DNA from: Escherichia coli
GTDB taxonomy: Bacteria; Pseudomonadota; Gammaproteobacteria; Enterobacterales; Enterobacteriaceae
Direction: 5' to 3' (one strand)
Assembly (NCBI RefSeq): GCF_965641715.1
Contig: NZ_OZ282453.1
Length of the DNA: 64,000 nt
Shown here: positions 2 through 30,395 of the stretch, piece by piece
Position numbering within the stretch: position 1 is the stretch's first letter
Layout: each line of letters opens with the position of its first letter
The notes under the pieces: model-generated
What the model was told of the DNA's origin: nothing
What the model saw: the letters and a program-made list of their open reading frames with translations, nothing else
Database searches by the model: none
Position numbers and translations under genes: made by a program

Positions 2-115
2 TTTTGCCGAGAAGATGGCACGACTGACGGCGCAGCTGAAAGATCAGCTGGAAGAGAGCGCGAAGCTGGAAGCACAGATTAAGGCGAATCTGGGGGGGCT
101 GGGTTATGAGTTCTA
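2..115 (+). CDS. hsdM: Type I R-M methyltransferase subunit HsdM, C-terminal fragment (gene starts upstream of window)
   Basis: Open frame from window edge ending ...KLEAQIKANLGGLGYEF*, a typical HsdM C-terminus; stop overlaps the hsdS start (ATGAGTTCTAA). Confidence 0.7.
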
Positions 116-1461
116 AGTTTCGGAAAGTAAAACTATGTGAAATCCTCTCATTTAAGACAGGTAAACTCGACTCGAATGCAGCAGTAGATAATGGTTGTTA
201 TCCTTTTTTTACTTGCTCGCCAGTTACACTTTCGATTAATACGCATGCTTTTGACACTGAAGCAGTATTATTAGCTGGTAATAACGCAAATGGGGTATTT
301 TCAGTAAAATACCACAATGGTAAGTTTAATGCTTACCAAAGAACATATGTTATTACTCCTCTGGATAATTCAGCGGTCAATGTGAAATGGCTTTATTTTA
401 GAATAAAATATGTTACGTCAGAATTACAATCAATGTCAGTTGGCACTGCAACAAAATTCTTAACAAAAAAGATTTTGGATTCATTTGAGATTGAACTGCC
501 AACTTTTGAAGAGCAAACATATCAAGCTCAGATTTTATGGGCGTTACAGGATAAATTAGCTAATAATGAAGCTATAAACCAAACTCTCGAACAAATGGCG
601 CAAGCCCTGTTCAAAAGCTGGTTTGTCGATTTTGAACCGGTAAAAGCCAAAATGGCAGCGTTGGAAGCGGGCGGTTCGCAGGAAGACGCGACACGTGCCG
701 CCATGACGGCAATTTCCGGGAAAGATGCTGATGCGTTGGTGGTTTTTGCGCGTGAACATCCTGAGCAATATGCCGAGTTAAAAGCCACGGCAGAACTGTT
801 TCCGTCTGCGGTGCAGGAAAGTGAGTTGGGGGCGATTCCTAAAGGATGGGGGGTGGCGTCAATTAGTGAGATGGGGAAGATTACTTGTGGCAAAACTCCG
901 TCAAAAAAAGAACCAAAGTATTACGGTGGTGATGTTCCATTCATAAAGATACCAGATATGCATGGGCAACTCTTTGTGCTTAAAACTAATGAATATTTAA
1001 GCGAAGTCGGTTCAAAGTCGCAACTAAAAAAACTTGTGCCCGCTAACTCTATCTGTGTTAGTTGTATAGCTACTATTGGTGTTGTTTCTATCACCAATGA
1101 ACCATCTCATACCAATCAGCAAATAAATTCGGTTACACCTTATAAGAGTTCATTACTTTATTATCTTTATTTTTGTATATTGGGATTGAAAGATCATCTT
1201 CACGTTTTAGGTAGCGCAGGTAGTGCAACCTTAAATGTCAATACGTCTACTTTCTCAGGAATTAAAATCGCTCAGCCTGATGCTAAAGTATTGGAGTTAT
1301 TTCATGCCAAATGTACACAATTATTTAATGAGATTAAATCGCTCTGTGTACAAACTGAATCACTTGCACAACTACGAGACACCCTCCTCCCCAAACTCCT
1401 CTCCGGAGAAATTACGTTACCGGATGCCGAGGAAATAGCCAAGGAAGCTGACTATGTTTAA
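106..1461 (+). CDS. hsdS: Type I R-M specificity subunit HsdS
   Basis: 451 aa; two AT-rich variable target-recognition regions flank a conserved central block (LEQMAQALFKSWFVDFEP) and C-terminal block (LRDTLLPKLLSGEI); start coupled to the hsdM stop. Confidence 0.9.
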   Translation: MSSKFRKVKLCEILSFKTGKLDSNAAVDNGCYPFFTCSPVTLSINTHAFDTEAVLLAGNNANGVFSVKYHNGKFNAYQRTYVITPLDNSAVNVKWLYFRIKYVTSELQSMSVGTATKFLTKKILDSFEIELPTFEEQTYQAQILWALQDKLANNEAINQTLEQMAQALFKSWFVDFEPVKAKMAALEAGGSQEDATRAAMTAISGKDADALVVFAREHPEQYAELKATAELFPSAVQESELGAIPKGWGVASISEMGKITCGKTPSKKEPKYYGGDVPFIKIPDMHGQLFVLKTNEYLSEVGSKSQLKKLVPANSICVSCIATIGVVSITNEPSHTNQQINSVTPYKSSLLYYLYFCILGLKDHLHVLGSAGSATLNVNTSTFSGIKIAQPDAKVLELFHAKCTQLFNEIKSLCVQTESLAQLRDTLLPKLLSGEITLPDAEEIAKEADYV

Positions 1462-2647
1462 AGTCGATCAGCCCAGTAATAGCCTGCAACCGCTTCAGGA
1501 AACCACCTTCACTAACGCGGGTTTCACCGAGCGCTACCACTTACAGGAGTGGCTGGCAAAGCATCCGCAAGCATTGACTCGCAACAGCGATGACGAACTA
1601 CTTATCATCCAGAAAGAGTTTGCCGGGTTTGACGACACCAAAGAGCGGTTAGATCTGCTGGCGATCGACAAAGACGGCAATCTGGTGATCATCGAGAACA
1701 AGCTCGATGATTCCGGGCGTGATGTCGTATGGCAGGCGCTGAAGTACGCGGGCTACTGCGCGAATCTACGCAAAGAACATATTGTTGAGATCTTCCAGCG
1801 TTACCTCGATCAGAACGATCCAGAAGAAACACGCCCAGCCTCTGATGTGCTCGCAGAATTCCTCGAACATGAAAGCCTGGATGAAGTGCAAATTAACCAA
1901 AGCCGTTCCCAGCGTGTGATGATGGTTGCGGCAAATTTCCGCAAGGAAGTTACCAATACTGCGCTCTGGCTGATGCAGTTCAACATCCGTGTCCAATGCT
2001 TTAAGGTCACGCCTTACCGTTATGGAAATGATGTATTCATCGACATCCGCCAGGTTATTCCCACACCGGAAGCCGAATCCTACATGATCGGTATGGCGCA
2101 GAAGGAAGCAGAAGAACAATCAACCAGCGGTGAACTGAAACAGAGCCAACGCCTGCGCAAGGCGTTCTGGACGCAGATGCTGGAGAAATTTCATGCCAGC
2201 GACTGTACGCTGTATAACAACATCAGCCCGTCTATGGATCACTGGTTATGTGCAGGCTCTGGCATAAGTGGTATGCCTTATAGCCTAATATTCAGCAAGA
2301 AGGAAATCCGCGTAGAATTATGGATTTCGCGAGCATCGGCAGACATCAACACCATGGCGTTGAACTGGCTTGAACAACACCGCACATCTGTCGAAGAGGT
2401 ATTCGGCAACCCACTGGAGTGGCTATCGCTACCTGGTAAAAAAGCCTGCCGTATTCAATACCGCCAAAAAATAGATGGCTTCCAGCAGGAAAATTGGCCG
2501 CAAATGATCGACTGGCTGGTGGAACATATGACCCGTTTTGAGAATGCGCTTTCGCCGTATCTGCCACAGCTTAACCAGTTGATCAAGCAGACCTTTAACG
2601 GGCATGATGAAGCTGAAAATACAACAGAAGAAGCCGAACACGTATAA
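1454..2647 (+). CDS. Hypothetical protein embedded between hsdS and hsdR; N-terminal PD-(D/E)XK-like nuclease motif
   Basis: 397 aa; ATG overlaps the hsdS stop by 8 nt with an AAGGAAG RBS; motif ERLDLLAIDKDGNLVIIENK resembles the D...ExK core of Hjc/NucS/RecB-type nucleases; no P-loop. Confidence 0.6.
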   Translation: MFKVDQPSNSLQPLQETTFTNAGFTERYHLQEWLAKHPQALTRNSDDELLIIQKEFAGFDDTKERLDLLAIDKDGNLVIIENKLDDSGRDVVWQALKYAGYCANLRKEHIVEIFQRYLDQNDPEETRPASDVLAEFLEHESLDEVQINQSRSQRVMMVAANFRKEVTNTALWLMQFNIRVQCFKVTPYRYGNDVFIDIRQVIPTPEAESYMIGMAQKEAEEQSTSGELKQSQRLRKAFWTQMLEKFHASDCTLYNNISPSMDHWLCAGSGISGMPYSLIFSKKEIRVELWISRASADINTMALNWLEQHRTSVEEVFGNPLEWLSLPGKKACRIQYRQKIDGFQQENWPQMIDWLVEHMTRFENALSPYLPQLNQLIKQTFNGHDEAENTTEEAEHV

Positions 2648-2662
2648 CACAGGACGTTACCG

Positions 2663-5600
2663 ATGCTTACCGAAGACGACTTAGAACAGCTTTGCCAGGG
2701 CTGGTTTGCCGAACAAGGTTGGGAAATCCATCATGGGCCAGATATTGCCCCCGATGGCTGTAACCCGCAACGCGCCAGCTATCATGATGTATTCCTGACG
2801 CCCGTGTTGAACGCCTGCCTGCAAAAAATCAACCCGCACCTGCCCACTGACGTCTTCGAACAGGTCATCTCCCGTATTACTCGCGCTGAAAGCCCGGATC
2901 TGATTGCCAGTAACAAAGCCTTTCATCACTGGTTGCTGGAAGGGGTTCCGGTACAGTACCGTCGCGACGAAGAACTTATCCACGACCACGCCCTGCTGGT
3001 GGATTTTAGCCAGCCGCAAAACAACCGTTTTATGGTGGTCAATCAAATGACTATCAGCGGAACGAAACAGCCTCGCCGCCCGGATATCATCTGCTTTATT
3101 AACGGAATACCACTGGCGGTTGTGGAACTAAAAAGCCCTGTCGATGACAAGGTAGATATCTGGGATGCGTACCACCAGTTACAGACCTATAAAGATGAAA
3201 TACGCGACCTGTTTATCAGCAATGAAGCGTTGATTGTCAGTGATGGTTATCTGGCGCGTGTGGGGTCCCTGACCGCCACGGAAGAACGTTTTATGCCGTG
3301 GAAGACCATCAGCAATGAAAATGACAAGCCGTTGCTGGAATGGCAACTGGAAACTATGGTACGGGGTTTCTTCAACCGGGAATTGCTGCTCGACTATATC
3401 CGCTATTTCGTTCTGTTTGAAAATAACGATGAAAGGCTAATTAAGAAAATAGCTGGTTATCACCAGTTCCACGCGGTGCGTGAGGCCGTGCAGGCGACGA
3501 TCGTTGCTTCGACCGGTAAGCAACTGGTACTGCACAGTAATATTCAGCCAGGCAGTAAGAAAGCAGGCGTGGTCTGGCATACGCAGGGTTCCGGTAAAAG
3601 CATCTCCATGTGTTGCTATGTCGGCAAACTGTTGCAACAGCCGGAGATGGGCAACCCGACGATTGTTGTTGTGACCGATCGTAACGATCTGGACGGCCAG
3701 CTTTATGGTACATTCTGCCAGGCACAGGAGCTGCTCAAGCAAATGCCGGTACAGGCAGATGATCGTGAAACATTGCGTGATCTGCTTGCAACTCGCGATG
3801 CTGGCGGCATTATCTTTACCACCGTGCAGAAATTCTCCCCGGAAGAAGGGGAAAACGCCCATCCGATTCTCAATGGACGCAGCAATATCGTTGTTATTTC
3901 CGATGAAGCGCACCGCAGCCAGTACGGCATGAAAGCCAACCTGGATCGTAAAACCGGCGTCTATAAATACGGTTACGCTAAACATATGCGCGACGCGCTA
4001 CCTAACGCCTCGTTTCTGGGATTTACCGGTACACCGGTTTCGGCAGAGGATCGCGATACTCGCGCTGTATTTGGCGATTACGTCTCAATTTATGATATTC
4101 AGGACGCTGTGGACGATGGCGCAACGGTGCCTATTCACTATGAATCCCGGCTGGCAAAACTCGATCTCAATCATGAAGAGCTGGCGGCGCTGTCCGATCA
4201 GGTTGAAGAACTGATTGAGGACGATGAGCTGGATCAGAGAGAAAAAACCAAAGGTGAATGGAGCCGTCTGGAGAAACTAGTTGGTGCTAAACCACGTCTT
4301 CAGCAGATCGCTGCCGATCTGATTTCTCACTTTGAGAAGCGCAATACCGTAATGGACGGCAAGGCGATGATTGTCGCCATGAGCCGTGAAATCTGCGTCC
4401 ATCTTTACGATGAAATTATTGCGTTGCGTCCGGAGTGGCACGATGACGATCCTGAAAAAGGGCAAATCAAAATCGTGATGACCGGTACAGCATCTGATAA
4501 GGCAATGCTGCAACCGCATATCTACAACAAACGGACTAAAAAACGGCTGGAATCCCGCTTCAAGAATGTGAACGACCCGCTGAAGCTGGTGATAGTGCGT
4601 GATATGTGGCTGACCGGCTTTGATGCCCCATGCTGTCACACTATGTATATCGACAAACCGATGCGCGGCCATAACCTGATGCAGGCTATTGCCCGTGTCA
4701 ACCGGGTATTCAAAGACAAGCCCGGCGGGCTGGTGGTGGATTATATTGGTATCGCCAATGAGCTGAAACTGGCGCTGAAAACTTATACCGATGCAAACGG
4801 TAAAGGTGATGCGACCGTCAACGCTGAAGAAGCACTGGCAATCATGCTGGAAAAGCTGGACATCATCCACGGTATGTTTGCCAAAACGGCAACGTCAGCG
4901 GGTTTTGATTACACCGGCTTTGAAGCTCATGCGCAGAAGTTGCTAGTACCAGTTGCAAACTATGTGCTCGGCCTTGAAGACGGTAAGAAGCGTTTTCTCG
5001 ATAACGTACTGGCAATTACTAAAGCCTGGTCGCTTTGCTGTACGCTGGATGCGGCGCAGCCTTATAAACTAGAGATTGCTTTCTTGTCGGCGGTAAAAGC
5101 TGCTATCAGCAAATTCACCAGTGTGGACAAAAAAATAAGCCAGGCTGAGAAGAACTCCGCGCTGAAACAGATTCTGGATAATGCCGTAATTGCTAACGGC
5201 GTGGATGATATTTTCACGCTGGCTGGTCTGGATAAACCGAATATTGGCTTGCTTTCAGATGAATTCTTGCAGGAAGTCCGCGATATGCCATATCGAAATC
5301 TGGCGGTAGAGCTGCTGGAAAAACTGATTAATGACGGTATCCAGTCCCGTACAAAAAACAATGTAGTGCAGGAGAGGAAATATTCAGAACGTCTTCAGGC
5401 TGTATTGATTAAATACAACAACCGGGCTATTGAGACGGCGCAGGTGATTGAAGAGCTGATCCAGATGGCGAAGGATTTTCAGTCTGCAATGGCGCGTGAT
5501 GATGCGCTTGGCCTGAATCCTGACGAGATCGCTTTCTACGATGCACTGGCAGAAAACGAAAGCGCCGTCCGGGAGTTAGGAGATGAGGTACTTAAGAAAC

Positions 5601-5797
5601 TGGCGATAGAAGTGACGCTGAAGCTGCGCCAATCCACTACCGTTGACTGGCAGGTACGGGAAAGCGTTCGTGCAAGGCTGCGTATCCTGGTTCGCCAGAC
5701 TCTGCGTCGGTATAAGTATCCGCCAGATAAAACGCCGGGTGCGGTGGAGTTAATTTTGAAACAAGCGGAAGTTATTTCGAATCATTGGACGATGTGA
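2663..5797 (+). CDS. hsdR: Type I R-M restriction subunit HsdR
   Basis: 1044 aa; N-terminal nuclease motif ([18 protein letters not shown]), helicase motif I ([11 protein letters not shown]), DEAH box ([12 protein letters not shown]), motif III (GFTGTP). Confidence 0.92.
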
Positions 5798-5803
5798 ATT
5801 TTA

Positions 5804-5833
5804 GGCTGGCTGTATCAACTGCCAGCCATATTT
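5804..5833 (+). terminator. Hairpin downstream of hsdR (GGCTGGC-N10-GCCAGCC followed by ATATTT)
   Basis: Perfect 7-bp inverted repeat read directly from sequence, 7 nt after the hsdR stop; T-tract is weak. Confidence 0.45.
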
Positions 5834-5861
5834 AAATTATCATCAGTTAAAAGGCACAATT

Positions 5862-7604
5862 GTGAGTAAATATAGCGAAATACAACGTCAATTAGATGAA
5901 GTAAGCCCAATACCGAAAGGTATTCCTAAAGTATACCTTTTAGGGGACACTGGAGCAGGAAAGACGACTTTTATTCGAAAAATATTAGGAACTGAAAATA
6001 CCAAATTCCCTACCACCAGACAAAGTAGAACAACCGTTGCACCAACTGAGTATGTAATATGTAAATCATCCAATTATGAATTAACGATTCTGTTAAAATC
6101 TTTTGATGAGATTAATGGATATGTCAGAGAAATTCTAAAAGAAGCATTAGAGAAATCATTGAAAGGTGAAGATGTTAAAAGAAGCTTACGTCAAACAAAT
6201 GATCAGCGGTTTCGTTTATACTATCTTCTTGACGTCAGTGATATTGCAAATTTTGCTGAAGAAGTTATCTCTCTTACACCTCTTCTTTCCGAAAAAATTG
6301 ACGAATTAAAAGAAATTTTTACCGATGATATAACGGATCAAGATGAGTATATTAGTTTTGCTATTGATGAATTAAATGATAAAGTTGAATGTATCCAAAA
6401 TAAGATTATGGACTCCATTCAGAGTAATGTAATGTCCATTTGTAATGGAAGTATGTTAAGTAATGAATCACAGATATTTAAATACATTTCAACCGAAAAA
6501 GAAGACTTTATCAAAAAATGTAAAAAAATATTATCAAGTGATAAAGAGTCTATATCACCTGTTGTCGAGTATGCGAGACTGAGTGGAGAACTCAAATCAG
6601 AATGGGTGAATAGTTGTGCAGAAATAGTTATTATTGATGGTGAAGGTATTGGGCATAATACAAAAGAAACGGCACAACTAGACTCCAGGCATTATGATTT
6701 CTTTTATGATGTTAACTCAATCTTGCTTATCGAAGAGTCAAAAAAACCTTTTATTGCTGGGGGCAAAAATGCATTAAAAAGTATTTTTCAGCGTGGATAT
6801 GGTGATAAATTAAAACTAATCTTCACTAAGCTGGATGAAGTTATACCTTATGATTCAGACGAATCAACAGATGAAGATAGAATTGATTATGTAAAAGATG
6901 GTCTCAATAATGTTCTGGATGCATTAAAAAAAGAAGAGGTGAAGTGTAACATTGATATCGAGGATATTTATTTCATCGGAGATCTTGATAAACCTGAGCA
7001 TAACGCAAGACTTGAATTGGCTTTTAATTCCATATATGAAAACACAGTTTCCATGATAAATAATGATGAGGTTTTCATTGAGCCTAAGTATGACTTTGAG
7101 TTATTGGCCTTGCATATAAATTCTACTTCTAATGATTTTAAAACATACTATAGAAAATTATTAGATAGAGAACATTGGAAAACAATAGAAGCATTTAATC
7201 GACGGATGTATTCAAATATAGATGGGTTTAGGATGTTTATGCCTATTACCGATTTTGAGGAAACTGTGAGTAAATATATTGGTGGTTTTTTGACCTCGCC
7301 AATGGATTGGAAATATGAAGCGGTTGATAACTTGAAGCAAAAAAGTATTAATAAAATCAAGAGGGAATTCAACAAGCTTATTCTTAGCTTTATTCGCAAT
7401 AAGTTAATTATGGAACCATATGAAAAATGGAAAGAATCCTATTTCTTAGCTGGCACTGGTTCAACGATTAGTAGAAAACGTGAGATAACTACTATTTTTA
7501 GTGACACAATTATTGATGCCTCCCAAACTGAACGCTTTAAGGTGTTCAAGGATCAAATTAAAGAGATTGTTGTCAAGTCAATAGAGAACTGTAAGTCAAT
7601 ATAA
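5862..7604 (+). CDS. AT-rich P-loop NTPase of unknown function (GTPase-like or ABC-like)
   Basis: 580 aa, GTG start with AAAGG RBS; Walker A/G1 GDTGAGKTT (aa 28-36); far downstream VIIDGEG (DxxG or Walker B-like) and FTKLD ([N/T]KxD-like); LSGE ~15 aa before VIIDGEG could be an ABC signature; GC roughly one third by eye. Confidence 0.6.
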   Translation: MSKYSEIQRQLDEVSPIPKGIPKVYLLGDTGAGKTTFIRKILGTENTKFPTTRQSRTTVAPTEYVICKSSNYELTILLKSFDEINGYVREILKEALEKSLKGEDVKRSLRQTNDQRFRLYYLLDVSDIANFAEEVISLTPLLSEKIDELKEIFTDDITDQDEYISFAIDELNDKVECIQNKIMDSIQSNVMSICNGSMLSNESQIFKYISTEKEDFIKKCKKILSSDKESISPVVEYARLSGELKSEWVNSCAEIVIIDGEGIGHNTKETAQLDSRHYDFFYDVNSILLIEESKKPFIAGGKNALKSIFQRGYGDKLKLIFTKLDEVIPYDSDESTDEDRIDYVKDGLNNVLDALKKEEVKCNIDIEDIYFIGDLDKPEHNARLELAFNSIYENTVSMINNDEVFIEPKYDFELLALHINSTSNDFKTYYRKLLDREHWKTIEAFNRRMYSNIDGFRMFMPITDFEETVSKYIGGFLTSPMDWKYEAVDNLKQKSINKIKREFNKLILSFIRNKLIMEPYEKWKESYFLAGTGSTISRKREITTIFSDTIIDASQTERFKVFKDQIKEIVVKSIENCKSI

Positions 7605-7615
7605 TAAGATAGAAC

Positions 7616-7638
7616 AGTCCCGGATAATATTCGGGACT
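7616..7638 (+). other. Hairpin after NTPase gene (AGTCCCG-N9-CGGGACT)
   Basis: Perfect 7-bp stem 12 nt after the stop codon; no U-tract, so may be an RNA-stability or processing element rather than a terminator. Confidence 0.35.
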
Positions 7639-7706: not shown

Positions 7707-8672
7707 ATGCCTTTAGATTTAAGTAACACTTTAGTTATTGGCATTAGCGCGACTGCGCTTTTTGACATGAGCGAATCCGACCATATGTTTCGGGAAACCT
7801 TTGCGACTGATCCTGATAGCGCCATTGAAAAATACCGCGCTTATATGCTAGAACACGAAAACCAACCTTTACAGCCCGGAACAGGCTACCCCTTAGTCAA
7901 AGCGTTGCTGGGTCTGAACCAGTACCGTCAACCGGATGATAAATCGCCGTTGGTTGAGGTTGTTGTGATGTCACGTAACAGCCCTGATACAGGTATCCGC
8001 GTTCTCAATACCATTCGCCATGACAAACTCGATATTACACGTTCAGCTTTTACCGCAGGCGAAACCGTTGCCGATTACCTTGATGCCTTTGATGTGGATC
8101 TGTTTTTAACGACCAACGTTGAAGATGCGCAAAAGGTGATTGATTCCCGATTCTGCGCCGCTGCAATCCTGAAAGATCCACCTTCTGACGCATCTGATAT
8201 CCCAGAAGGGCAAGTGCGCATTGCTTTTGATGGCGACGCGGTACTTTTTTCCGATCAAAGCGAACTGGTTTATAAGACCCAAGGAATGGCTGCCTTCCAT
8301 GCTCAGGAAGACGCGCAGCAGGATATCCCTATGGAAGAGGGGCCTTATGCCACTTTGCTAAAAAAAATAGCCAAGCTTCAGGAACGATTGCCGACCCGCG
8401 TTGAGTATTCTCCTGTTCGTATTGCGCTGGTGACAGCCCGAAATAGCCCTTCGGAAATGCGCGTTATTAAAACGCTAAGAAGCTGGGGGGTATATGTCGA
8501 TGAAGCTTTTTTTCTTGGCGGTGTAGAGAAAACAAAAGTTCTGAAGGCGTTTAGGCCACACATTTTCTTTGACGATCAGGATGTGCATTTGATCGCGGCT
8601 GCAAAGGTAGTACCTTCTGGTAAAGTACCTTATGCCAGTAACTCCGAACTTGCAGAACGTGAAGCATCGTGA
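7707..8672 (+). CDS. HAD-superfamily phosphatase, cytosolic 5'-nucleotidase-like
   Basis: 321 aa; RBS AAGGAAAG; C-terminal half carries HAD-like motifs I (IAFDGDAVLF), II (IALVTARN), a conserved Lys and IV (HIFFDDQDVH); N-terminal ~170 aa is a separate domain. Assignment is from motifs, not a search. Confidence 0.55.
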   Translation: MPLDLSNTLVIGISATALFDMSESDHMFRETFATDPDSAIEKYRAYMLEHENQPLQPGTGYPLVKALLGLNQYRQPDDKSPLVEVVVMSRNSPDTGIRVLNTIRHDKLDITRSAFTAGETVADYLDAFDVDLFLTTNVEDAQKVIDSRFCAAAILKDPPSDASDIPEGQVRIAFDGDAVLFSDQSELVYKTQGMAAFHAQEDAQQDIPMEEGPYATLLKKIAKLQERLPTRVEYSPVRIALVTARNSPSEMRVIKTLRSWGVYVDEAFFLGGVEKTKVLKAFRPHIFFDDQDVHLIAAAKVVPSGKVPYASNSELAEREAS

Positions 8673-8749: not shown

Positions 8750-9625
8750 TCAATGCTCTCCTCTGAACACCTCTTTTCTGTGCCATTCCACAAACTGCTC
8801 GCCCGGATAATTTTCTTTAACCGGTGGCAACGCAATCGCCTTTCCCGCAAAATCCCAGAACAGTCGCTGTACCACTCCACCACCATTTACCGCGCCGGAA
8901 ACCACCACACGCATATTTTCATCCAAGCCAATCGAACCGCGATCAAACGCTTTATGATGGATTGCGCACAATGCCAGGCCATTAGGTACTTCACAAGGGC
9001 CATGGTGCTGCTTCCATCTGATATGAGCAGCTTCCAGAGCAATTGGCGCATTGTCGTGGCGCATGTTGAAGCCGCAGATCGCACACTGATAATTGTAAGC
9101 ACGTAGCACCATCTGGCGGAACTTCGGATCGCGTTGACGGAGAGAGGTGCGAATATCAAAACCCATCTCGTCAGCTATCTCTTCCTGAATACTGGCCGGG
9201 AAATGCGCCTCCAGGAGCTGCTGCGCCAGCGTATCAATTAACCTGTGATTTTTTGCCACCAACGCAAAATTATCGGCATCAAATCCACCAGCGACATTAT
9301 ATTCAATGAGTTCACGTCGGGGCGGCTGGCGGCTACCACTGGTTGAGCACAGTTGTGCGTTTTGTAGTTCCCAGAAGCCATCGCCCTTCAGACGCCAGAA
9401 CGGCATGTCCGGGCGCTGGTCACGGCGCTGCGGTCCATAACGTTCCAGAAGATCCAACAGGGGCTCGTAGATTTCAGAACCATAGTTAAACAGGCGACCA
9501 TGACCCTGCCGATAGTGTGAGAGGACGTGCAGCAGCAATAATGGCTTATGTGGCGCACGTTGTTCGCCTTTGCGCCAGATGGTGATATTTGATATCGCTT
9601 GCTTTAGGGCTTTGTCAGAGGTCAT
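8750..9625 (-). CDS. HNH endonuclease with N-terminal putative DNA-recognition domain (candidate Type IV restriction enzyme)
   Basis: C-terminal HNH motif YQCAICGF...AAHIRWKQHHGPCEVPNGLALCAIHHKAFDRG (CxxC, H, N, CxxHH); ~190-aa N-terminal domain unidentified. Start set at ATG (MTSDKAL); the track ORF extends to a TTG at 9670. Confidence 0.6.
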   Translation of the reverse strand: MTSDKALKQAISNITIWRKGEQRAPHKPLLLLHVLSHYRQGHGRLFNYGSEIYEPLLDLLERYGPQRRDQRPDMPFWRLKGDGFWELQNAQLCSTSGSRQPPRRELIEYNVAGGFDADNFALVAKNHRLIDTLAQQLLEAHFPASIQEEIADEMGFDIRTSLRQRDPKFRQMVLRAYNYQCAICGFNMRHDNAPIALEAAHIRWKQHHGPCEVPNGLALCAIHHKAFDRGSIGLDENMRVVVSGAVNGGGVVQRLFWDFAGKAIALPPVKENYPGEQFVEWHRKEVFRGEH

Positions 9626-9769
9626 TGCGTTGAAGAATCCATGAGCACATATTTGCGATGATGCTCGCAACTATATGTACATTCAAGGCATTATTGCAGA
9701 CATCCTTTTTGCCTGACTGCTCTGTACCTGGCAGATGAAATTCTGATAACAACGGTAAAAAATACAGCG

Positions 9770-9840: not shown

Positions 9841-11109
9841 TCACTCGCCATTACCCCGATTGATCTTCGCATAGTCAAACGGCGTAATCGCTCTCTCCCG
9901 ATTGGCATCCAGAAAATCAGCCCACCACTGCAACATCAGCTTGCGCTCATCCAGGTGTTCCGCTTTATGGATATACGCCGCCCTCACCGAGCTGCGTTCC
10001 ATATGGCTCATCTGCCTTTCCACCGCATCCTTCGACCATAACCCTGACTCAATCAATGAGCTACAGGCCATTGTGCGGAAGCCGTGGCCGCAAACTTCAA
10101 CCTTAGTGTCATAACCCATCACCCGTAGCGCACTGTTTACCGTGTTCTCGCTCATGGGCTTACGCGGATCGTGATCGCCAATAAAAATCAGCTCATGTTC
10201 GCCACAGAACTGTTTTATCTGCTTCAGGATCGCCAGCGCCTGCTTTGAAAGCGGCACCAGATGCGGTGTACGCATCTTTGAACCTCGCTGAGAATGTTTC
10301 ACACCGGGAATCGGTTCTCGCTCAGGCGGGATGGTCCACATTGACGTTTCAAAATCGATTTCTGACCAGCGAGCAAAACGTAGCTCACTGGATCGAATAA
10401 AGATAAGCAGAGTGAGTTCTGTCGCCCAGCGGGTTAGCGGCCTGCCTGTATAGCTATCTATTTTCTCAAGTAACTCAGGGATACGCTTTAATTCCAGCGC
10501 CGGGCGATGCTGTCGATTGCCAGAGGCGACTGCTCCAGCCATCTCCTGCGCTGGGTTGTAATCAATCAGCCCACTTTGCACTGCATAACGCATAATGGCC
10601 GTGGTACGCTGTTGGAGACGAGAAGCCACCTCAAGACGTCCAGACAGTTCCACCGCTTTAATGGGTGCCAGTAAGTCACGAGTGCCCAATTCGGCAATAT
10701 TGCGAGAACCAATTGCCGGGAAGATATTGTCCTCCAGGCTCTTTTTTACACGATTAGCATGATCTTCTGACCATTTTTGGTTGGTTACGAGCCACTCTCT
10801 GGCAACCTTCTCGAAAGTAATAATCTCTTTCGCCTGCTCTTCTTTCACAGCACGCTTATGCTCACGAGGATCGATACCAGCAGCTACCAGCTTTCTGGCC
10901 TCTTCCCTTTTCTTCCTGGCATCTGCCAGCGAAACATCCGGGTAAACGCCGAACGCCATCAAATGTTGTTTACCGCCAAAACGGAAACGAAATCGCCAAT
11001 ACTTTGAACCGCCAGGTTTTACAAGTAAGGACATGCCATCGCCGTCAACAAGTGAATACTCTTTCTCCTCAGGTTTCGCAGAGCGAACTTTAGTATCCGT
11101 TAGGGCCAT
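9841..11109 (-). CDS. intB: P4-type tyrosine integrase (IntB-like) adjacent to leuX
   Basis: Begins MALTDTKVRSAKP..., ends ...AITPFDYAKINRGNGE; C-terminal catalytic region with R...HxxR...Y pattern; start trimmed from the track ORF (448 aa) to the conserved MALTD start (422 aa). Confidence 0.85.
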   Translation of the reverse strand: MALTDTKVRSAKPEEKEYSLVDGDGMSLLVKPGGSKYWRFRFRFGGKQHLMAFGVYPDVSLADARKKREEARKLVAAGIDPREHKRAVKEEQAKEIITFEKVAREWLVTNQKWSEDHANRVKKSLEDNIFPAIGSRNIAELGTRDLLAPIKAVELSGRLEVASRLQQRTTAIMRYAVQSGLIDYNPAQEMAGAVASGNRQHRPALELKRIPELLEKIDSYTGRPLTRWATELTLLIFIRSSELRFARWSEIDFETSMWTIPPEREPIPGVKHSQRGSKMRTPHLVPLSKQALAILKQIKQFCGEHELIFIGDHDPRKPMSENTVNSALRVMGYDTKVEVCGHGFRTMACSSLIESGLWSKDAVERQMSHMERSSVRAAYIHKAEHLDERKLMLQWWADFLDANRERAITPFDYAKINRGNGE

Positions 11110-11280
11110 AATGGTCTTCCTTCCATTGGTATCTCGTGAGTATACAAGCAATATCGAATCGGCAAATATACTCATTAGTATACTCACAAGCCTGTTGATG
11201 TGGGTTGGTTCAGGTTGACTTCAGTTGAGGAGAAAAGCTGGAAAAGCCTTGCGTGGCGCGGATTTCAGGCATAAAAAAAG

Positions 11281-11306
11281 ACCTCAGTTGAGGTCTATTT
11301 ACATAC
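11281..11306 (-). terminator. leuX terminator
   Basis: On the minus strand AGACCTCAACTGAGGTCT hairpin followed by TTTTTT, immediately 3' of the tRNA. Confidence 0.7.
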
Positions 11307-11309
11307 TTT

Positions 11310-11394
11310 TGGTGCCGAAGGCCGGACTCGAACCGGCACGTATTTCTACGGTTGATTTTGAATCAACTGCGTCTACCGATTTCGCCACTTCGGC
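11310..11394 (-). tRNA. leuX: tRNA-Leu (anticodon CAA)
   Basis: Reverse complement reads GCCGAAGTGGCGAAATCGGTAGACGCAGTTGATTCAAAATCAACCGTAGAAATACGTGCCGGTTCGAGTCCGGCCTTCGGCACCA: cloverleaf with CAA anticodon and CCA end. Confidence 0.95.
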
Positions 11395-11589
11395 ACTGAA
11401 GAGGTATGCGGAAAACGTTGTGGATTATACCTGTCGCACGCCACCATGCAAGCGCCAGCTTGCTCGCACCTCGCTAAGTGCTGAAATTTTCAGCATTGCA
11501 TACAGCGATGTGTAACCTTTGTCACACTCCAGGCACCCCGCCCTGCCATGCTCTACACTTCCCAGACAACACCAGAGAAGGACCAAAAA

Positions 11590-12609
11590 ATGTCGATGAT
11601 AAGAAGCTATGCCGCAAAAGAAGCGGGCGGCGAACTGGAAGTTTATGAGTACGATCCCGGTGAGCTGAAGCCACAAGATGTTGAAGTGCAGGTGGATTAC
11701 TGCGGGATCTGCCATTCCGATCTGACGATGATCGATAACGAATGGGGATTTTCACAATATCCGCTGGTTGCCGGGCATGAGGTGATTGGGCGCGTGGTGG
11801 CACTCGGGAGCGCCGCGCAGGATAAAGGTTTGCAGGTCGGTCAGCGTGTCGGGATTGGCTGGACGGCGCGTAGCTGTGGTCACTGCGACGCCTGTATTAG
11901 CGGTAATCAGATCAACTGCGAGCAAGGTGCGGTGCCGACGATTATGAATCGCGGCGGTTTTGCCGAGAAGTTGCGTGCAGACTGGCAATGGGTGATTCCA
12001 CTGCCAGAAAATATTGATATCGAGTCCGCCGGGCCGCTGCTGTGTGGTGGTATCACGGTCTTTAAACCACTGTTGATGCACCATATCACTGCTACCAGCC
12101 GCGTTGGGGTAATTGGTATTGGCGGGCTGGGGCATATCGCTATAAAACTTCTGCACGCAATGGGATGCGAGGTGACAGCCTTTAGTTCTAATCCGGCGAA
12201 AGAGCAGGAAGTACTGGCGATGGGTGCCGATAAAGTGGTGAATAGCCGCGATCCGCAGGCACTGAAAGCCCTGTCGGGGCAGTTTGATCTCATTATCAAT
12301 ACTGTGAACGTCAGCCTCGACTGGCAGCCTTATTTTGAGGCGCTGGCCTATGGCGGTAATTTCCATACGGTCGGTGCGGTTCTCACGCCGCTATCTGTTC
12401 CGGCCTTTACGTTAATTGCGGGCGACCGCAGCATCTCTGGTTCTGCTACCGGCACGCCTTATGAGCTGCGAAAGCTGATGCGCTTTGCCGCCCGTAGCAA
12501 GGTTGCGCCGACCACCGAACTGTTCCCGATGTCGAAAATTAACGACGCCATCCAGCATGTGCGCGACGGTAAGGCGCGTTACCGCGTGGTGTTGAAAGCC
12601 GATTTTTGA
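11590..12609 (+). CDS. ahr: NADPH-dependent aldehyde reductase, Zn-dependent alcohol dehydrogenase family
   Basis: 339 aa starting [21 protein letters not shown] zinc-ADH motif; start trimmed from the track ORF to the ATG with GAAGGA RBS. Confidence 0.9.
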
Positions 12610-12612
12610 AAA

Positions 12613-13176
12613 TCATTCGCAGCGCTGATCTGAGGCGCTGCCCTCTTTCGCACATATTCTGTTTTGTCGTATCGCCAGCACAGCCTGCCGACATTGTTCG
12701 GTGACATTGGCAATATCATGGTTGATATCAATGCGCACAATATCCTGTTCATCTGCTTGTGGACGCTCCAGCGCCTCAAACTGACTTTTTAGTAACGCTA
12801 CCGGCATAAAATGCCCAGCCCGACGCTGCATTCGCGCGAGGATAGTTTCATAGTCGCCATCTAACCAGAGGAAATGAACATGGGGGCTACCCTTGCGTAA
12901 AATATCACGATACTGTTTTTTTAATGATGAACAGACAATAAATCCTGTTTCATTCTTTTTATAAAGACTGTATGAAGCATCATTTAAGCGTTCCAGCCAG
13001 GGAAGTCGATCTTCATCAGATAATGGAATACCCTGCGACATTTTATCTATATTTTTGGCTGGATGAAGATCGTCACCATCAATAAATTTAGCAGATAATA
13101 ACGCGGCAACCTTGCTACCAATTAATGTTTTACCACTCCCTGAAACGCCCATCAAAATAAAGCTTTCACCCGCCAT
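12613..13176 (-). CDS. idnK: Gluconokinase (thermosensitive, idonate pathway)
   Basis: 187 aa; P-loop GVSGSGKT; convergent with ahr with a 3-nt gap. Confidence 0.9.
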   Translation of the reverse strand: MAGESFILMGVSGSGKTLIGSKVAALLSAKFIDGDDLHPAKNIDKMSQGIPLSDEDRLPWLERLNDASYSLYKKNETGFIVCSSLKKQYRDILRKGSPHVHFLWLDGDYETILARMQRRAGHFMPVALLKSQFEALERPQADEQDIVRIDINHDIANVTEQCRQAVLAIRQNRICAKEGSASDQRCE

Positions 13177-13277
13177 TTAAAATCTCCTGAATCATCTTAC
13201 CTGCTGCGATACTACGCCTGGTGGCATAATAATTTCACGTTTTTTTATTTCTGCTGATAAGAATTACAAGGCACATC

Positions 13278-13293
13278 ACGTTATGCGTAACAT
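13278..13293. promoter_or_regulatory. GntR/IdnR-type operator-like site in idnK-idnD divergent promoter region
   Basis: ACGTTA-TGCG-TAACAT, one mismatch from the ATGTTA-N4-TAACAT consensus as recalled; a second GTAACA half-site lies at 13299-13304. Confidence 0.45.
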
Positions 13294-13392
13294 AGTAATG
13301 TAACAATTTTCTGACGTGATCTTCATCACAAATAATGACAATTAAAACCGCTTAAATGCTTCCGAGGTGTCTACCTGACCAGTGAGGAATTT

Positions 13393-14424
13393 ATGCAAGT
13401 GAAAACACAGTCCTGCGTTGTTGCGGGCAAGAAAACTGTTGCCGTTACCGAGCAGACGATAGATTGGAATAATAATGGAACATTAGTACAAATAACCCGA
13501 GGTGGAATTTGCGGTTCCGATTTACATTATTATCAGGAAGGAAAAGTAGGTAATTTCATGATAAAGGCACCGATGGTGTTAGGTCATGAAGTTATCGGTA
13601 AAGTTATTCATAGCGACTCATCAGAATTACATGAAGGGCAAACGGTAGCCATTAATCCGTCTAAACCGTGCGGTCACTGCAAATACTGCATTGAACATAA
13701 CGAGAATCAGTGTACAGAGATGCGTTTTTTTGGCAGTGCCATGTATTTCCCTCATGTTGATGGTGGCTTTACCCGTTATAAAATGGTCGAAACGTCGCAA
13801 TGTGTCCCTTATCCGGCCAAAGCTGACGAAAAGGTTATGGCTTTTGCCGAACCTTTAGCCGTCGCGATTCATGCCGCACATCAGGCCGGCGAGTTACAGG
13901 GCAAGCGAGTATTTATTTCTGGTGTTGGGCCCATTGGCTGCCTGATTGTCAGTGCTGTGAAAACACTGGGGGCCGCGGAAATTGTCTGTGCCGATGTGAG
14001 TCCCCGTTCCCTTTCGCTGGGCAAAGAGATGGGGGCGGATGTGCTCGTAAACCCACAAAACGACGACATGGATCACTGGAAAGCGGAAAAAGGCTATTTC
14101 GATGTCAGCTTTGAAGTGTCCGGTCATCCTTCATCAGTGAATACCTGTCTGGAGGTCACTCGTGCACGCGGCGTAATGGTGCAGGTAGGTATGGGAGGCG
14201 CGATGGCAGAATTCCCAATGATGGCATTGATTGGTAAGGAGATTTCACTCAAAGGCTCTTTCCGTTTTACCAGCGAATTTAATACCGCAGTGTCATGGCT
14301 GGCGAATGGCGTTATCAATCCACTGCCTTTACTGAGTGCTGAATATCCCTTCACTGACCTGGAAGAGGCGCTACGTTTCGCCGGTGATAAAACCCAGGCA
14401 GCAAAAGTCCAGCTTGTTTTCTAA
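13393..14424 (+). CDS. idnD: L-idonate 5-dehydrogenase
   Basis: 343 aa; Zn-ADH motifs (GICGSDLHYY, GHE). Confidence 0.9.
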   Translation: MQVKTQSCVVAGKKTVAVTEQTIDWNNNGTLVQITRGGICGSDLHYYQEGKVGNFMIKAPMVLGHEVIGKVIHSDSSELHEGQTVAINPSKPCGHCKYCIEHNENQCTEMRFFGSAMYFPHVDGGFTRYKMVETSQCVPYPAKADEKVMAFAEPLAVAIHAAHQAGELQGKRVFISGVGPIGCLIVSAVKTLGAAEIVCADVSPRSLSLGKEMGADVLVNPQNDDMDHWKAEKGYFDVSFEVSGHPSSVNTCLEVTRARGVMVQVGMGGAMAEFPMMALIGKEISLKGSFRFTSEFNTAVSWLANGVINPLPLLSAEYPFTDLEEALRFAGDKTQAAKVQLVF

Positions 14425-29390: not shown

Positions 29391-30395
29391 ATGTCCGGGT
29401 TTTATCATAAGCATTTCCTGAAATTACTCGATTTCACGCCAGCTGAACTCAACAGCCTGCTGCAGTTAGCCGCGAAGCTGAAAGCCGATAAGAAAAGCGG
29501 CAAAGAAGAAGCCAAACTCACTGGTAAAAACATCGCGCTCATCTTCGAAAAAGACTCGACCCGTACCCGATGCTCTTTCGAAGTTGCCGCATATGACCAG
29601 GGTGCTCGCGTTACTTATCTCGGCCCAAGCGGCAGTCAGATTGGTCATAAAGAGTCGATTAAAGACACTGCCCGCGTGCTGGGTCGCATGTATGACGGTA
29701 TTCAGTATCGCGGCTATGGTCAGGAGATTGTCGAAACACTGGCGGAATACGCTGGCGTGCCGGTATGGAACGGCCTGACCAATGAGTTTCACCCCACGCA
29801 GTTGCTGGCGGATCTCCTCACCATGCAGGAGCATTTACCCGGTAAAGCATTCAACGAAATGACGCTGGTCTATGCAGGTGACGCACGTAACAACATGGGC
29901 AATTCGATGCTCGAAGCTGCGGCGCTTACCGGTCTGGATTTGCGTCTGGTCGCGCCACAGGCATGCTGGCCGGAAGCTGCGCTGGTTACGGAATGCCGCG
30001 CCCTGGCACAGCAAAATGGCGGGGATATTACGCTGACGGAAGATGTAGCCAAAGGAGTTGAAGGTGCTGACTTTATCTATACCGATGTATGGGTGTCGAT
30101 GGGTGAAGCAAAAGAGAAATGGGCTGAACGCATTGCATTGCTGCGTGATTATCAGGTGAACAGCAAGATGATGCAGTTGACCGGTAACCCGGAGGTCAAA
30201 TTCCTCCACTGCCTGCCCGCGTTTCATGACGACCAGACGACGCTTGGTAAGAAAATGGCGGAAGAGTTTGGCCTACATGGCGGAATGGAAGTGACTGATG
30301 AGGTCTTCGAATCTGCCGCCAGCATTGTTTTTGATCAGGCGGAAAACCGTATGCATACCATCAAAGCAGTGATGGTCGCGACGCTCAGTAACTAA
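29391..30395 (+). CDS. argI: Ornithine carbamoyltransferase
   Basis: 334 aa; carbamoyl-phosphate motif STRTR and HCLP motif. Confidence 0.93.

Follow-up and report, generated by a model that had tools for sequence, protein, structure and literature searches.

Directly behind a type I restriction-modification (R-M) block, Escherichia coli contig NZ_OZ282453.1 (assembly GCF_965641715.1) carries a gene whose product has a P-loop and, much further along the chain, motifs that can be read in two ways. This raises the questions of which class of NTPase it encodes and what such a protein does there. The gene occupies positions 5862..7604 on the + strand of the 64,000-nucleotide stretch analyzed here (the window) and specifies 580 amino acids from a GTG start, the stop codon being included in these coordinates. 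A sequence-only reading had called its class ambiguous, either a TRAFAC GTPase with a large insertion or an ABC-type ATPase that resembles OLD, PtuA and GajA but is degenerate. Sequence libraries alone indeed cannot place the protein, but fold and conservation favor the GTPase. The protein is very probably a dynamin-superfamily NTPase, and the preferred reading, to which we assign a probability of roughly 0.6, is that it is a stand-alone large GTPase of that superfamily acting as a single-gene cassette against phages or mobile elements.

A predicted dynamin-type G domain

An AlphaFold2 model made from a 35-sequence alignment (predicted local distance difference test score (pLDDT) 87.8, predicted template modeling score 0.88) contains, from the N terminus, beta1, the P-loop, alpha1, switch I, a beta-hairpin (residues 62-66 and 72-78), a helical insert (81-234), a strand (235-242), a second strand that carries DxxG (255-259), alpha2-beta4-alpha3-beta5 with [TS]KxD, alpha4-beta6-alpha5 and seven C-terminal helices. 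After G3 the predicted order, alpha2-beta4-alpha3-beta5(G4)-alpha4-beta6-alpha5, is that of a canonical G domain. A fold search with this model listed SynDLP (scores 16.9 and 16.6), Campylobacter DLP1 (16.6), Fzo1 (16.6), MFN2 (16.2), IniA (15.4), Mgm1/OPA1 (14.2-14.6), EHD4 (14.1), Campylobacter DLP2 (14.0) and MxB (13.8), indicating an enlarged G domain whose nearest structural neighbors are dynamin-like proteins and not small or translational GTPases. Foldseek against the PDB also placed SynDLP first (E 1.7e-7), followed by Campylobacter DLP1/2, dynamin, MFN1/2, OPA1, Drp1 and LeoA; against AFDB50 it matched uncharacterized relatives only. Structure prediction and Foldseek comparison, by which the sequence-only reading had proposed to settle the P-loop class, thus point to the dynamin superfamily and not to an unrelated fold.

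Conservation was assessed in 35 homologs (down to 38% identity), in 131 representatives of 50%-identity clusters and in a set of 101 relatives. The four motifs picked out earlier are all present and, judged from these alignments, are real and not chance resemblances. G1, the P-loop GDTGAGKTT (residues 28-36; 5943..5969, +), stands between a predicted strand (23-28) and a predicted helix (32-42) and follows the pattern GxxGxGK[TS], with G28, G33 and K34 kept in 128-130 of 131 relatives. The putative switch I/G2 region, FPTTRQSRTTVAPTEY (residues 49-64; 6006..6053, +), has T57-T58 just before predicted beta2 (strand 62-66); each of F49, P50, [RK]56, T57, T58 and E63 is kept by 123 or more of the 131 relatives, the candidate G2 Thr pair by 123 (T57) and 130 (T58). 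When the family profile was compared with E. coli RdcA/YjdA by hhalign, G1-G2 only was aligned, this stretch pairing weakly with the P-loop-to-switch-I stretch of RdcA (probability 26%).

The G3/Walker B/switch II element IVIIDGEGIGH (residues 255-265; 6624..6656, +), with VIIDGEG at 256-262, comprises predicted strand 255-259 and then a low-pLDDT loop (263-270), as expected of a switch region in such a model. D259, G262 and H265 are present in 131 of 131 relatives and G264 in 122, the invariant His after G3 (DxEGxGH) being a non-canonical family trait. The putative G4, FTKLD (residues 321-325; 6822..6836, +), lies at the end of predicted beta5 (strand 317-322). The earlier assignment of FTKLD as a dynamin-type TKxD motif, and the proposal that homologs would show which residues matter, bear on this element: its position stands, with F321 in 120, T/S322 in 126 and D325 in 125 of 131 relatives, but its Lys does not, since position 323 is His in 93 relatives, Lys in 28 and Arg in 6. 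The G4 motif of the family is therefore [TS][HKR]xD and not TKxD. Within the closer set of 35 homologs the invariant residues are G28, D29, T30, G31, G33, K34, T36, D259-G-E-G-I-G-H265, K323, L324, E326 and V327. Thus, the fold search, the conserved DGEG and T-x-x-D residues and the element order after G3 support the TRAFAC/dynamin-type reading with its large insertion.

That insertion of about 150 residues (81-234; 6102..6563, +) interrupts the G domain after the beta2 hairpin and ahead of the strand that leads into G3, probably at the site of the dynamin and mitofusin insertion. It is predicted to consist of helices 81-100, 125-137, 139-152, 160-170, 172-193 and 213-224 and a strand at 204-210, and it is the most variable part of the protein. 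Conservation is lowest at residues 125-200; residues 361-405 are also variable. High conservation is found in the G motifs, in the strand leading into G3 and in two C-terminal patches. The all-helical C-terminal domain (residues 406-580, about 175 residues; 7077..7601, +), with predicted helices 412-436, 439-450, 461-478, 489-517, 520-527, 534-549 and 556-579, holds these patches, HWxTxxAFNRRM (438-449) and GxGSTxxR (531-538), together with P461 and W523; A444, P461, W523 and R538 are invariant in the 101 relatives. Its isoelectric point is 9.1, compared with 4.5 for the G-domain parts. Features that stay non-canonical are the frequent His in G4, the invariant His of DxEGxGH and the length of the insert; the order of the G domain after G3 is canonical.

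The ABC-type alternative takes LSGE as the ABC signature and VIIDGEG as Walker B. LSGE (residues 240-243) belongs to the strand VEYARLSGELK (residues 235-245; 6564..6596, +) and lies 16 residues ahead of VIIDGEG, in agreement with the earlier estimate of about 15, and this spacing to an acidic strand fits an ABC layout. Weak PADLOC matches to the ABC-like mad3 (E 1.2e-3) and mad8 (E 2e-3), weak matches to ABC_tran, FtsE and ST1066 limited to the P-loop region, and AAA_23, AAA_15 or ABC_tran matches of E <= 1e-3 in a few relatives point the same way. However, the strand conserves R239 (131 of 131) and G242 (129 of 131), and S241 is Ser in merely 20 of 131 relatives. LSGE falls inside predicted beta-strand 235-242 and not at a helix N terminus, and there is no Q-loop. 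Nor is there an hhhhDE Walker B: the sequence reads IIDGEGIGH, and 104 of 131 relatives have Gly at position 260, which is never a conserved Glu. ABC ATPases carry an N-terminal antiparallel sheet; the protein here begins with a predicted helix, has just about 20 residues ahead of beta1 and so lacks such a sheet.

An internal control is provided by 12 relatives that are fused to a genuine ABC domain (see below), which displays GKNGxGKST...LSSGEKQ...LDEPExSLH...ATH and matches AAA_21 at E 3.9e-20 and AriA/PtuA at E down to 1e-40. A hidden Markov model (HMM) of that domain matched solely these 12 of 268 proteins and none of the 256 unfused members at E <= 1, and the family profile, when compared with this PtuA/AriA-type domain by hhalign, aligned over 16-17 P-loop columns and nothing more. 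On the variable S241, the strand placement, the Gly after D259, the P-loop-only alignment and the HMM result, the ABC-type reading was rejected, and we regard it as extremely improbable. The ambiguous look arises because a P-loop, a long helical insert and a short motif plus acidic strand mimic SMC/Rad50-like ABC ATPases in one dimension. The LSGE strand, with family consensus I-R-V-x-G-P-F, presumably resembles the pre-G3 strand of dynamin (LRVYSP) and of mitofusin (VRVFWP), a likeness that we take as a lead only.

A sparse family with Septu-type fusions

Searches of Pfam, NCBIfam, PADLOC and PHROGs, and phmmer against the PDB, gave P-loop-level or marginal matches only, the best being MMR_HSR1 (E 0.005) and the mad3 match given above. 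A profile of the 101 relatives against PDB sequences gave P-loop matches plus a weak, individually non-significant G3-G4 alignment to the Der GTPase. Hundreds of full-length relatives of about 583 amino acids exist without a precomputed Pfam domain, and their labels vary by source ('hypothetical', 'ATP-binding', 'P-loop NTPase', 'GTPase SAR1 family', 'Dynamin family protein'). An exhaustive search of 1.84 billion cluster representatives returned 516 of them at E <= 1e-3, among which 122 reached E <= 1e-30. Full-text literature searches, which did not extend to supplementary tables, found no paper on the family, and neither DefensePredictor nor a protein-language-model paper mentions a GTPase or dynamin system. 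These proteins constitute a distinct, unnamed family without a Pfam, NCBIfam, PADLOC or PHROGs entry, inside a known superfamily and of known fold class.

The family is sparse yet phylogenetically wide. Of 5,426 complete E. coli genomes, 2 carry the gene, each at a different tRNA site. A pattern scan of species genomes found 30 loci in 100,044 genomes, a lower bound because exact motif patterns were needed for retrieval; these loci belong to Gamma-, Beta- and Zetaproteobacteria, Campylobacterota, Verrucomicrobiota, Nitrospirota, Melainabacteria-like bacteria, Bacteroidota and Bacillota. Relatives also reside on plasmids, including conjugative and mobilizable ones. The gene has 32% G+C, compared with 50% in hsdR and 47% in the downstream gene, and this composition, the rarity in E. 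coli at two tRNA sites, the plasmids and the patchy phyla together indicate mobility. A tblastn search of 50,697 phage records found no family member, and a phage-borne origin was rejected on that result.

In one branch the entire module is joined to a known defense system. The fused relatives are 29-38% identical to the E. coli protein over its whole 580 residues and, in a form of about 975-990 amino acids, continue into a C-terminal PtuA/AriA-type ABC ATPase (AAA_21/AAA_15), which matches AriA of PARIS best (E 1e-40). Twelve relatives carry this domain (P0127, P0132, P0134-P0137, P0139, P0140, P0142, P0146, P0148 and P0149), one of which (P0134, 1183 amino acids) also has a fused HNH domain. 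The fused form is followed by an overlapping open reading frame (ORF) of about 260 codons, which matched PtuB (E 1e-13 to 1e-20) at each of the seven loci examined, and ORFs of the same size and position follow it in four more loci. The loci concerned are L031-L040 and L043 (in L039, for example, the fusion spans 10001-12937 and the downstream ORF 12909-13700), mostly from Campylobacterota, Marinomonas, Methylomonas, Nitrosomonas and Aureivirga. To judge by their domains, the fused forms are Septu variants with the dynamin-like module as the N-terminal half of PtuA. No other single observation argues more strongly that the module has an immune function, one of sensing or switching and not of killing.

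Members of the superfamily's largest branch, about 750 amino acids long (P0150, P0162 and about 100 others; loci L044, L045, L047, L049, L050, L016 and L017), fall in the same 29-38% identity range and have at their N terminus a conserved extension of about 100 residues (..S[LM]xFRHPxxxDxxGKxGLRxxxGLGTxDxxEA..) that has no Pfam match. In the Agrobacterium locus L017 a hypothetical gene of 598 codons starts 12 nucleotides past such a relative, and in the Rhodococcus locus L016 the relative closes a run of three small overlapping ORFs; these neighbors may be partner genes.

Genomic neighborhoods

The block upstream of the gene (106..5797, +) comprises hsdS (106-1461), a DUF4268/PDC-S11 gene (1454-2647) and hsdR (2663-5797); hsdM presumably lies beyond the left end of the window. 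The order hsdM-hsdS-DUF4268-hsdR is annotated by PGAP in two E. coli genomes, and Pfam domains HsdM_N/N6_Mtase, Methylase_S, DUF4268 and HSDR_N/ResIII were found in the corresponding Buttiauxella and Citrobacter blocks. The GTPase gene follows hsdR of such a block in all Enterobacterales loci (the window, E. coli G3/10 and EC291, Buttiauxella and Citrobacter), and the spacer (5798-5861 in the window) measures 64 nucleotides in five of five (the window, L001, L002, L019 and L020), although the GTPase proteins of these loci diverge by up to 24%. The genes are on islands, located at tRNA-Sec in G3/10, at tRNA-Leu in EC291 and, in the window, at tRNA-Leu(CAA) (11310-11394, minus strand) beside a P4-type integrase; the ahr-idnK-idnD flank of the window is 99.6% identical to E. 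coli chromosomes. The Enterobacterales islands also hold TerY-P, TIR, ScoMcrA-like or phosphorothioated-DNA endonuclease, toxin-antitoxin and anti-restriction genes.

Mobile and defense genes also surround homologs outside this block. A Vibrio parahaemolyticus homolog has an integrase beside it, another is adjacent to BrnT/BrnA and a cI-like repressor, and a third is set among insertion sequence (IS) elements, PemK, a Dcm methylase and AbiJ. The Desulfarcum homolog (45% identity) adjoins a type I R-M system and an AAA/S8-peptidase pair, and the Photobacterium homolog has cas genes of a CRISPR-Cas locus 6 kb away (L006). Type I R-M genes lie 1 kb from the Rhodococcus plasmid homolog (L016) and are also recorded at L008; the Agrobacterium plasmid homolog (L017) adjoins DGQHR and radical-SAM genes, and toxin-antitoxin genes, integrases and IS elements are found near L003, L004 and L011. 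Lone homologs amid housekeeping genes occur in Pectobacterium and at two other loci.

About 22 of the 30 species-scan loci have at least 5 kb of flank, and 10-11 of these have a known defense gene within 10 kb. Since the annotation of neighbors took in part of the 334 neighbor ORFs (PADLOC and NCBIfam on 30 ORFs gave 13 defense genes, 7 of them PtuB, and 17 non-matches or housekeeping genes) and has no matched control, the defense association is suggestive and the figure rough. The defense neighbors in the scan are type I R-M (L021, L023, L039, L044 and L045), an Hma/BrxH-like methylase plus helicase (L028), DrmD of DISARM (L050), PbeC/DndD with DUF4268 and PDC-M26A (L049), GajB-like and mad3-like genes (L043), a RecD-like PDC-S68 gene (L024) and a TIR fragment (L037).

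Two of these loci deserve a separate description. In the Paraburkholderia sp. locus L028 (1682-9859) a 38%-identical homolog lies directly 3' of an HmaB-like methylase and an HmaA/BrxH/DrmD-like helicase, together with two small ORFs, a slot of the kind where PADLOC catalogs 'Hma-embedded candidate' defense genes. In Bacillus sp. ISL-37 (L049) a DUF4268 gene (11989-12972, E 2e-20) adjoins the distant GTPase relative.

Such adjacency invites a special case of the immunity reading, in which the protein guards or assists the type I R-M system next to it: it would sense that restriction fails or is inhibited (for example by anti-restriction proteins of the Ocr/ArdA type) and would then act, by the logic of PrrC in the prr locus or of PARIS. 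PrrC sits inside hsdMS-prrC-hsdR, and Ocr, an anti-restriction protein, triggers PARIS. In favor of a guard are the fixed position behind hsdR in Buttiauxella, Citrobacter and three E. coli genomes, with a variable gene on the downstream side, and independent adjacency to type I R-M in Desulfarcum, Aliidiomarina, Methylomonas, Fictibacillus, Paenibacillus and the Rhodococcus plasmid; other modification-based systems (Hma-like, DrmD, PbeC/DndD and DGQHR) adjoin relatives as well, and the fused domain is closest to AriA. However, L003, L004, L006, L009, L010, L011, L025, L027 and L047 have no R-M genes within 10 kb, and R-M is so common in defense islands that its proximity is expected of any island gene. 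The difference in G+C between the gene and the R-M block suggests a separate origin and counts against long co-evolution, and a stem-loop between hsdR and the GTPase gene suggests separate transcription units. We consider a guard role unlikely, and likewise any specific backing of restriction-type systems by the protein.

A dynamin-like GTPase could also have a non-immune role, in membrane repair or remodeling (as DynA, IniA and BDLP) or in maintenance or transfer of mobile elements. The nearest solved structures are membrane-remodeling proteins, homologs stand alone among housekeeping genes at L009, L010 and L027, and conjugative and mobilizable plasmids carry relatives. Housekeeping DynA, for its part, also alters phage outcome. 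A hydropathy scan, however, found no membrane-spanning, strongly hydrophobic or paddle-like segment in the protein (the highest 19-residue Kyte-Doolittle mean is 0.87), and the idea of a membrane protein was therefore dropped. The very patchy occurrence, the foreign base composition, the absence from phage records, the recurrence in defense islands and the fusion of the whole module to a Septu nuclease system likewise speak against a non-immune role, which we consider less likely still than a guard role. The preferred reading is that of an immunity gene, which neighborhood and fusions make probable.

Several sequence signals bear on expression of the gene. A Shine-Dalgarno-like AAAGG (5850..5854, +), read directly from the sequence, lies 7 nucleotides 5' of the GTG, and the N terminus MSKYSEIQ aligns with the first residues of homologs, so that the GTG start agrees with them. 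One stem-loop occupies the spacer behind hsdR (5804..5827, +; RNA fold -15.8 kcal/mol, z -3.85 against shuffles) and another, with a 10-bp stem and no T-run, begins 12 nucleotides past the stop codon (7616..7638, +; -14.0 kcal/mol, z -4.18). A terminator consensus scan called neither of them. The spacer stem-loop may be a terminator, a processing site or a recombination scar.

Other genes of the window are of interest in their own right. The DUF4268 gene (1454-2647, +) matches the PADLOC candidate PDC-S11 (E 1e-177) and lies, its start and stop codons overlapping, between hsdS and hsdR in five of five Enterobacterales loci. The hsdS gene (106-1461, +) has 39.5% G+C, compared with 50% in the DUF4268 gene and hsdR, consistent with a swap of specificity subunits or target-recognition domains. 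Downstream of the GTPase gene, a 5'-nucleotidase-like protein of 321 amino acids (7707-8672, +) matches the PADLOC single-gene candidate PDC-S08 nearly end to end (E 5e-134) and PF06189 in Buttiauxella. Genes of this type stand beside the GTPase gene in E. coli and Buttiauxella but are absent in Citrobacter (L020) and all distant loci, and an obligate partnership was rejected for that reason; the gene may serve defense by itself, through nucleotide degradation. A 306-residue HNH protein encoded between the GTPase cassette and the integrase (8750-9670, -) matches the NCBIfam 'phosphorothioated DNA-binding restriction endonuclease' above its cutoff (E 5e-133) and is a ScoMcrA/SprMcrA-type modification-dependent nuclease. 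Further along, the 30-32 kb region of the window has 36% G+C; its ORF of 555 codons (30452-32119, -) has no NCBIfam match, adjoins argI (ornithine carbamoyltransferase, 29391-30395) and, by its place on the K-12 map, may be yjgL.

Mode of action and relation to known systems

Several observations weigh against an immune dynamin-like GTPase. Compared over the full length, the model reaches TM-scores of only about 0.3 with solved dynamin-like proteins; clear superposition is confined to the G domain, and the helical parts may not be related to the stalks of dynamin. The protein itself has no significant match to Pfam Dynamin_N (PF00350), which reaches E <= 1e-3 in just 3 and E <= 0.1 in 14 of the 101 relatives; the distant member P0150 is matched over the whole Dynamin_N model (1-164 of 168, E 9.5e-4). 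On sequence, the preferred nucleotide may be GTP or ATP: EHD proteins retain an NKxD-like G4 but use ATP, and position 323 is His in most relatives. About half of the loci with usable flanks have no known defense gene found within 10 kb; examples are loci with leuA/ilvC (L027), RND efflux (L040) and housekeeping genes (L009 and L010). R-M genes are the commonest defense genes, and their adjacency is therefore weak evidence of a specific partnership. Finally, no effector domain is recognizable in the protein, which leaves a stand-alone GTPase without an evident way to stop a phage.

If the preferred reading is correct, the protein would bind GTP, and nucleotide-dependent dimerization or oligomerization of the G domain would then move the helical parts, as in other dynamin-like proteins. 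The conserved G domain and C-terminal domain would form the engine, and the variable helical insert, with residues 361-405, the surface that contacts an invader component. Infection might be hindered directly, by assembly of the Mx/GBP kind, or together with neighboring systems. In the Septu-fused branch the module may be a sensor or regulator of the nuclease, and the E. coli form, fixed behind type I R-M, may add a second layer to restriction. A more specific and unlikely proposal is that the module is a sensor or switch backing modification-based immunity in general (type I R-M, Hma, DISARM and Dnd/Pbe): the helical insert would detect evasion of restriction, through an anti-restriction protein or an invader structure, and GTP-driven assembly would act alone in the 580-residue form or release PtuA/PtuB in the fused form, making the E. 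coli protein a single-gene counterpart of Mx and GBP.

With mitofusins (MFN1/2 and Fzo1) and the dynamin-like proteins of bacteria (SynDLP, Campylobacter DLP1/DLP2, Nostoc BDLP, IniA and LeoA) the protein shares an enlarged G domain, an insertion before the G3 strand, a putative G4 of the [NT][KRH]xD type and helices after the G domain. It differs from both in that its insertion is a subdomain of about 150 residues and not one helix and that the His of DxEGxGH is invariant; it also has no membrane paddle or transmembrane segment, no profile match to a solved dynamin-like protein past the P-loop and a C-terminal domain that does not superpose globally.

To our knowledge, Eleos/LeoABC is so far the sole bacterial defense system built on dynamin-type GTPases. 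In this system, formerly called 'Dynamins' and composed of LeoA and LeoBC, protection depends on the P-loop, and P-loop mutants lose defense against jumbo phages (Millman et al. 2022, bioRxiv 10.1101/2022.05.11.491447). As a dynamin-like GTPase of defense islands, Eleos is a precedent for dynamin-type immunity in bacteria. Eleos is, however, an operon of two or three dynamin-like genes matched by Dynamin_N/LeoA models, and the present GTPase is a single gene, flanked by hsdR and the 5'-nucleotidase-like gene with no second dynamin-like gene. The PADLOC LeoA/LeoBC models do not match it, and they match one distant relative at P-loop level (E 4.9e-5).

The link to Septu, in which an ABC ATPase (PtuA) is paired with an HNH nuclease (PtuB), lies in the relatives that fuse the whole module to a PtuA/AriA-type ATPase; the E. 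coli protein lacks that ATPase domain as well as a PtuB partner and is therefore not a Septu system. With PrrC and PARIS (AriA/AriB) it shares the tie of a P-loop NTPase gene to a type I R-M locus. It differs from them in lacking an anticodon-nuclease or Toprim domain and in being a TRAFAC GTPase, PrrC and AriA being ABC-like; any guard role here is hypothetical. Dynamin-type GTPases of the Mx, GBP and IRG groups are central to animal antiviral immunity, and the G3 of GBP, DTEGLGD, resembles DxEGxG. The likeness, which does not go beyond superfamily and working principle, is that of a large GTPase without an enzymatic effector domain and with nucleotide-driven assembly on pathogen structures; the helical domains differ, and direct descent is without evidence.

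What is new is a separate, wide but sparse family of single genes (about 580 codons) that repeatedly adjoins restriction-type systems and, in one branch, forms the N-terminal half of a Septu protein. Its ABC-like layout in one dimension, with P-loop, helical insert and acidic strand, can hide a dynamin fold, which matters for the family's 'ATP-binding protein' entries. If it protects against phages or plasmids, the family would offer a compact, tractable model of how a large GTPase without an effector stops an invader, would reveal the wiring between such a module and a nuclease and would help to find out whether GTPase switches stand guard over bacterial restriction systems.

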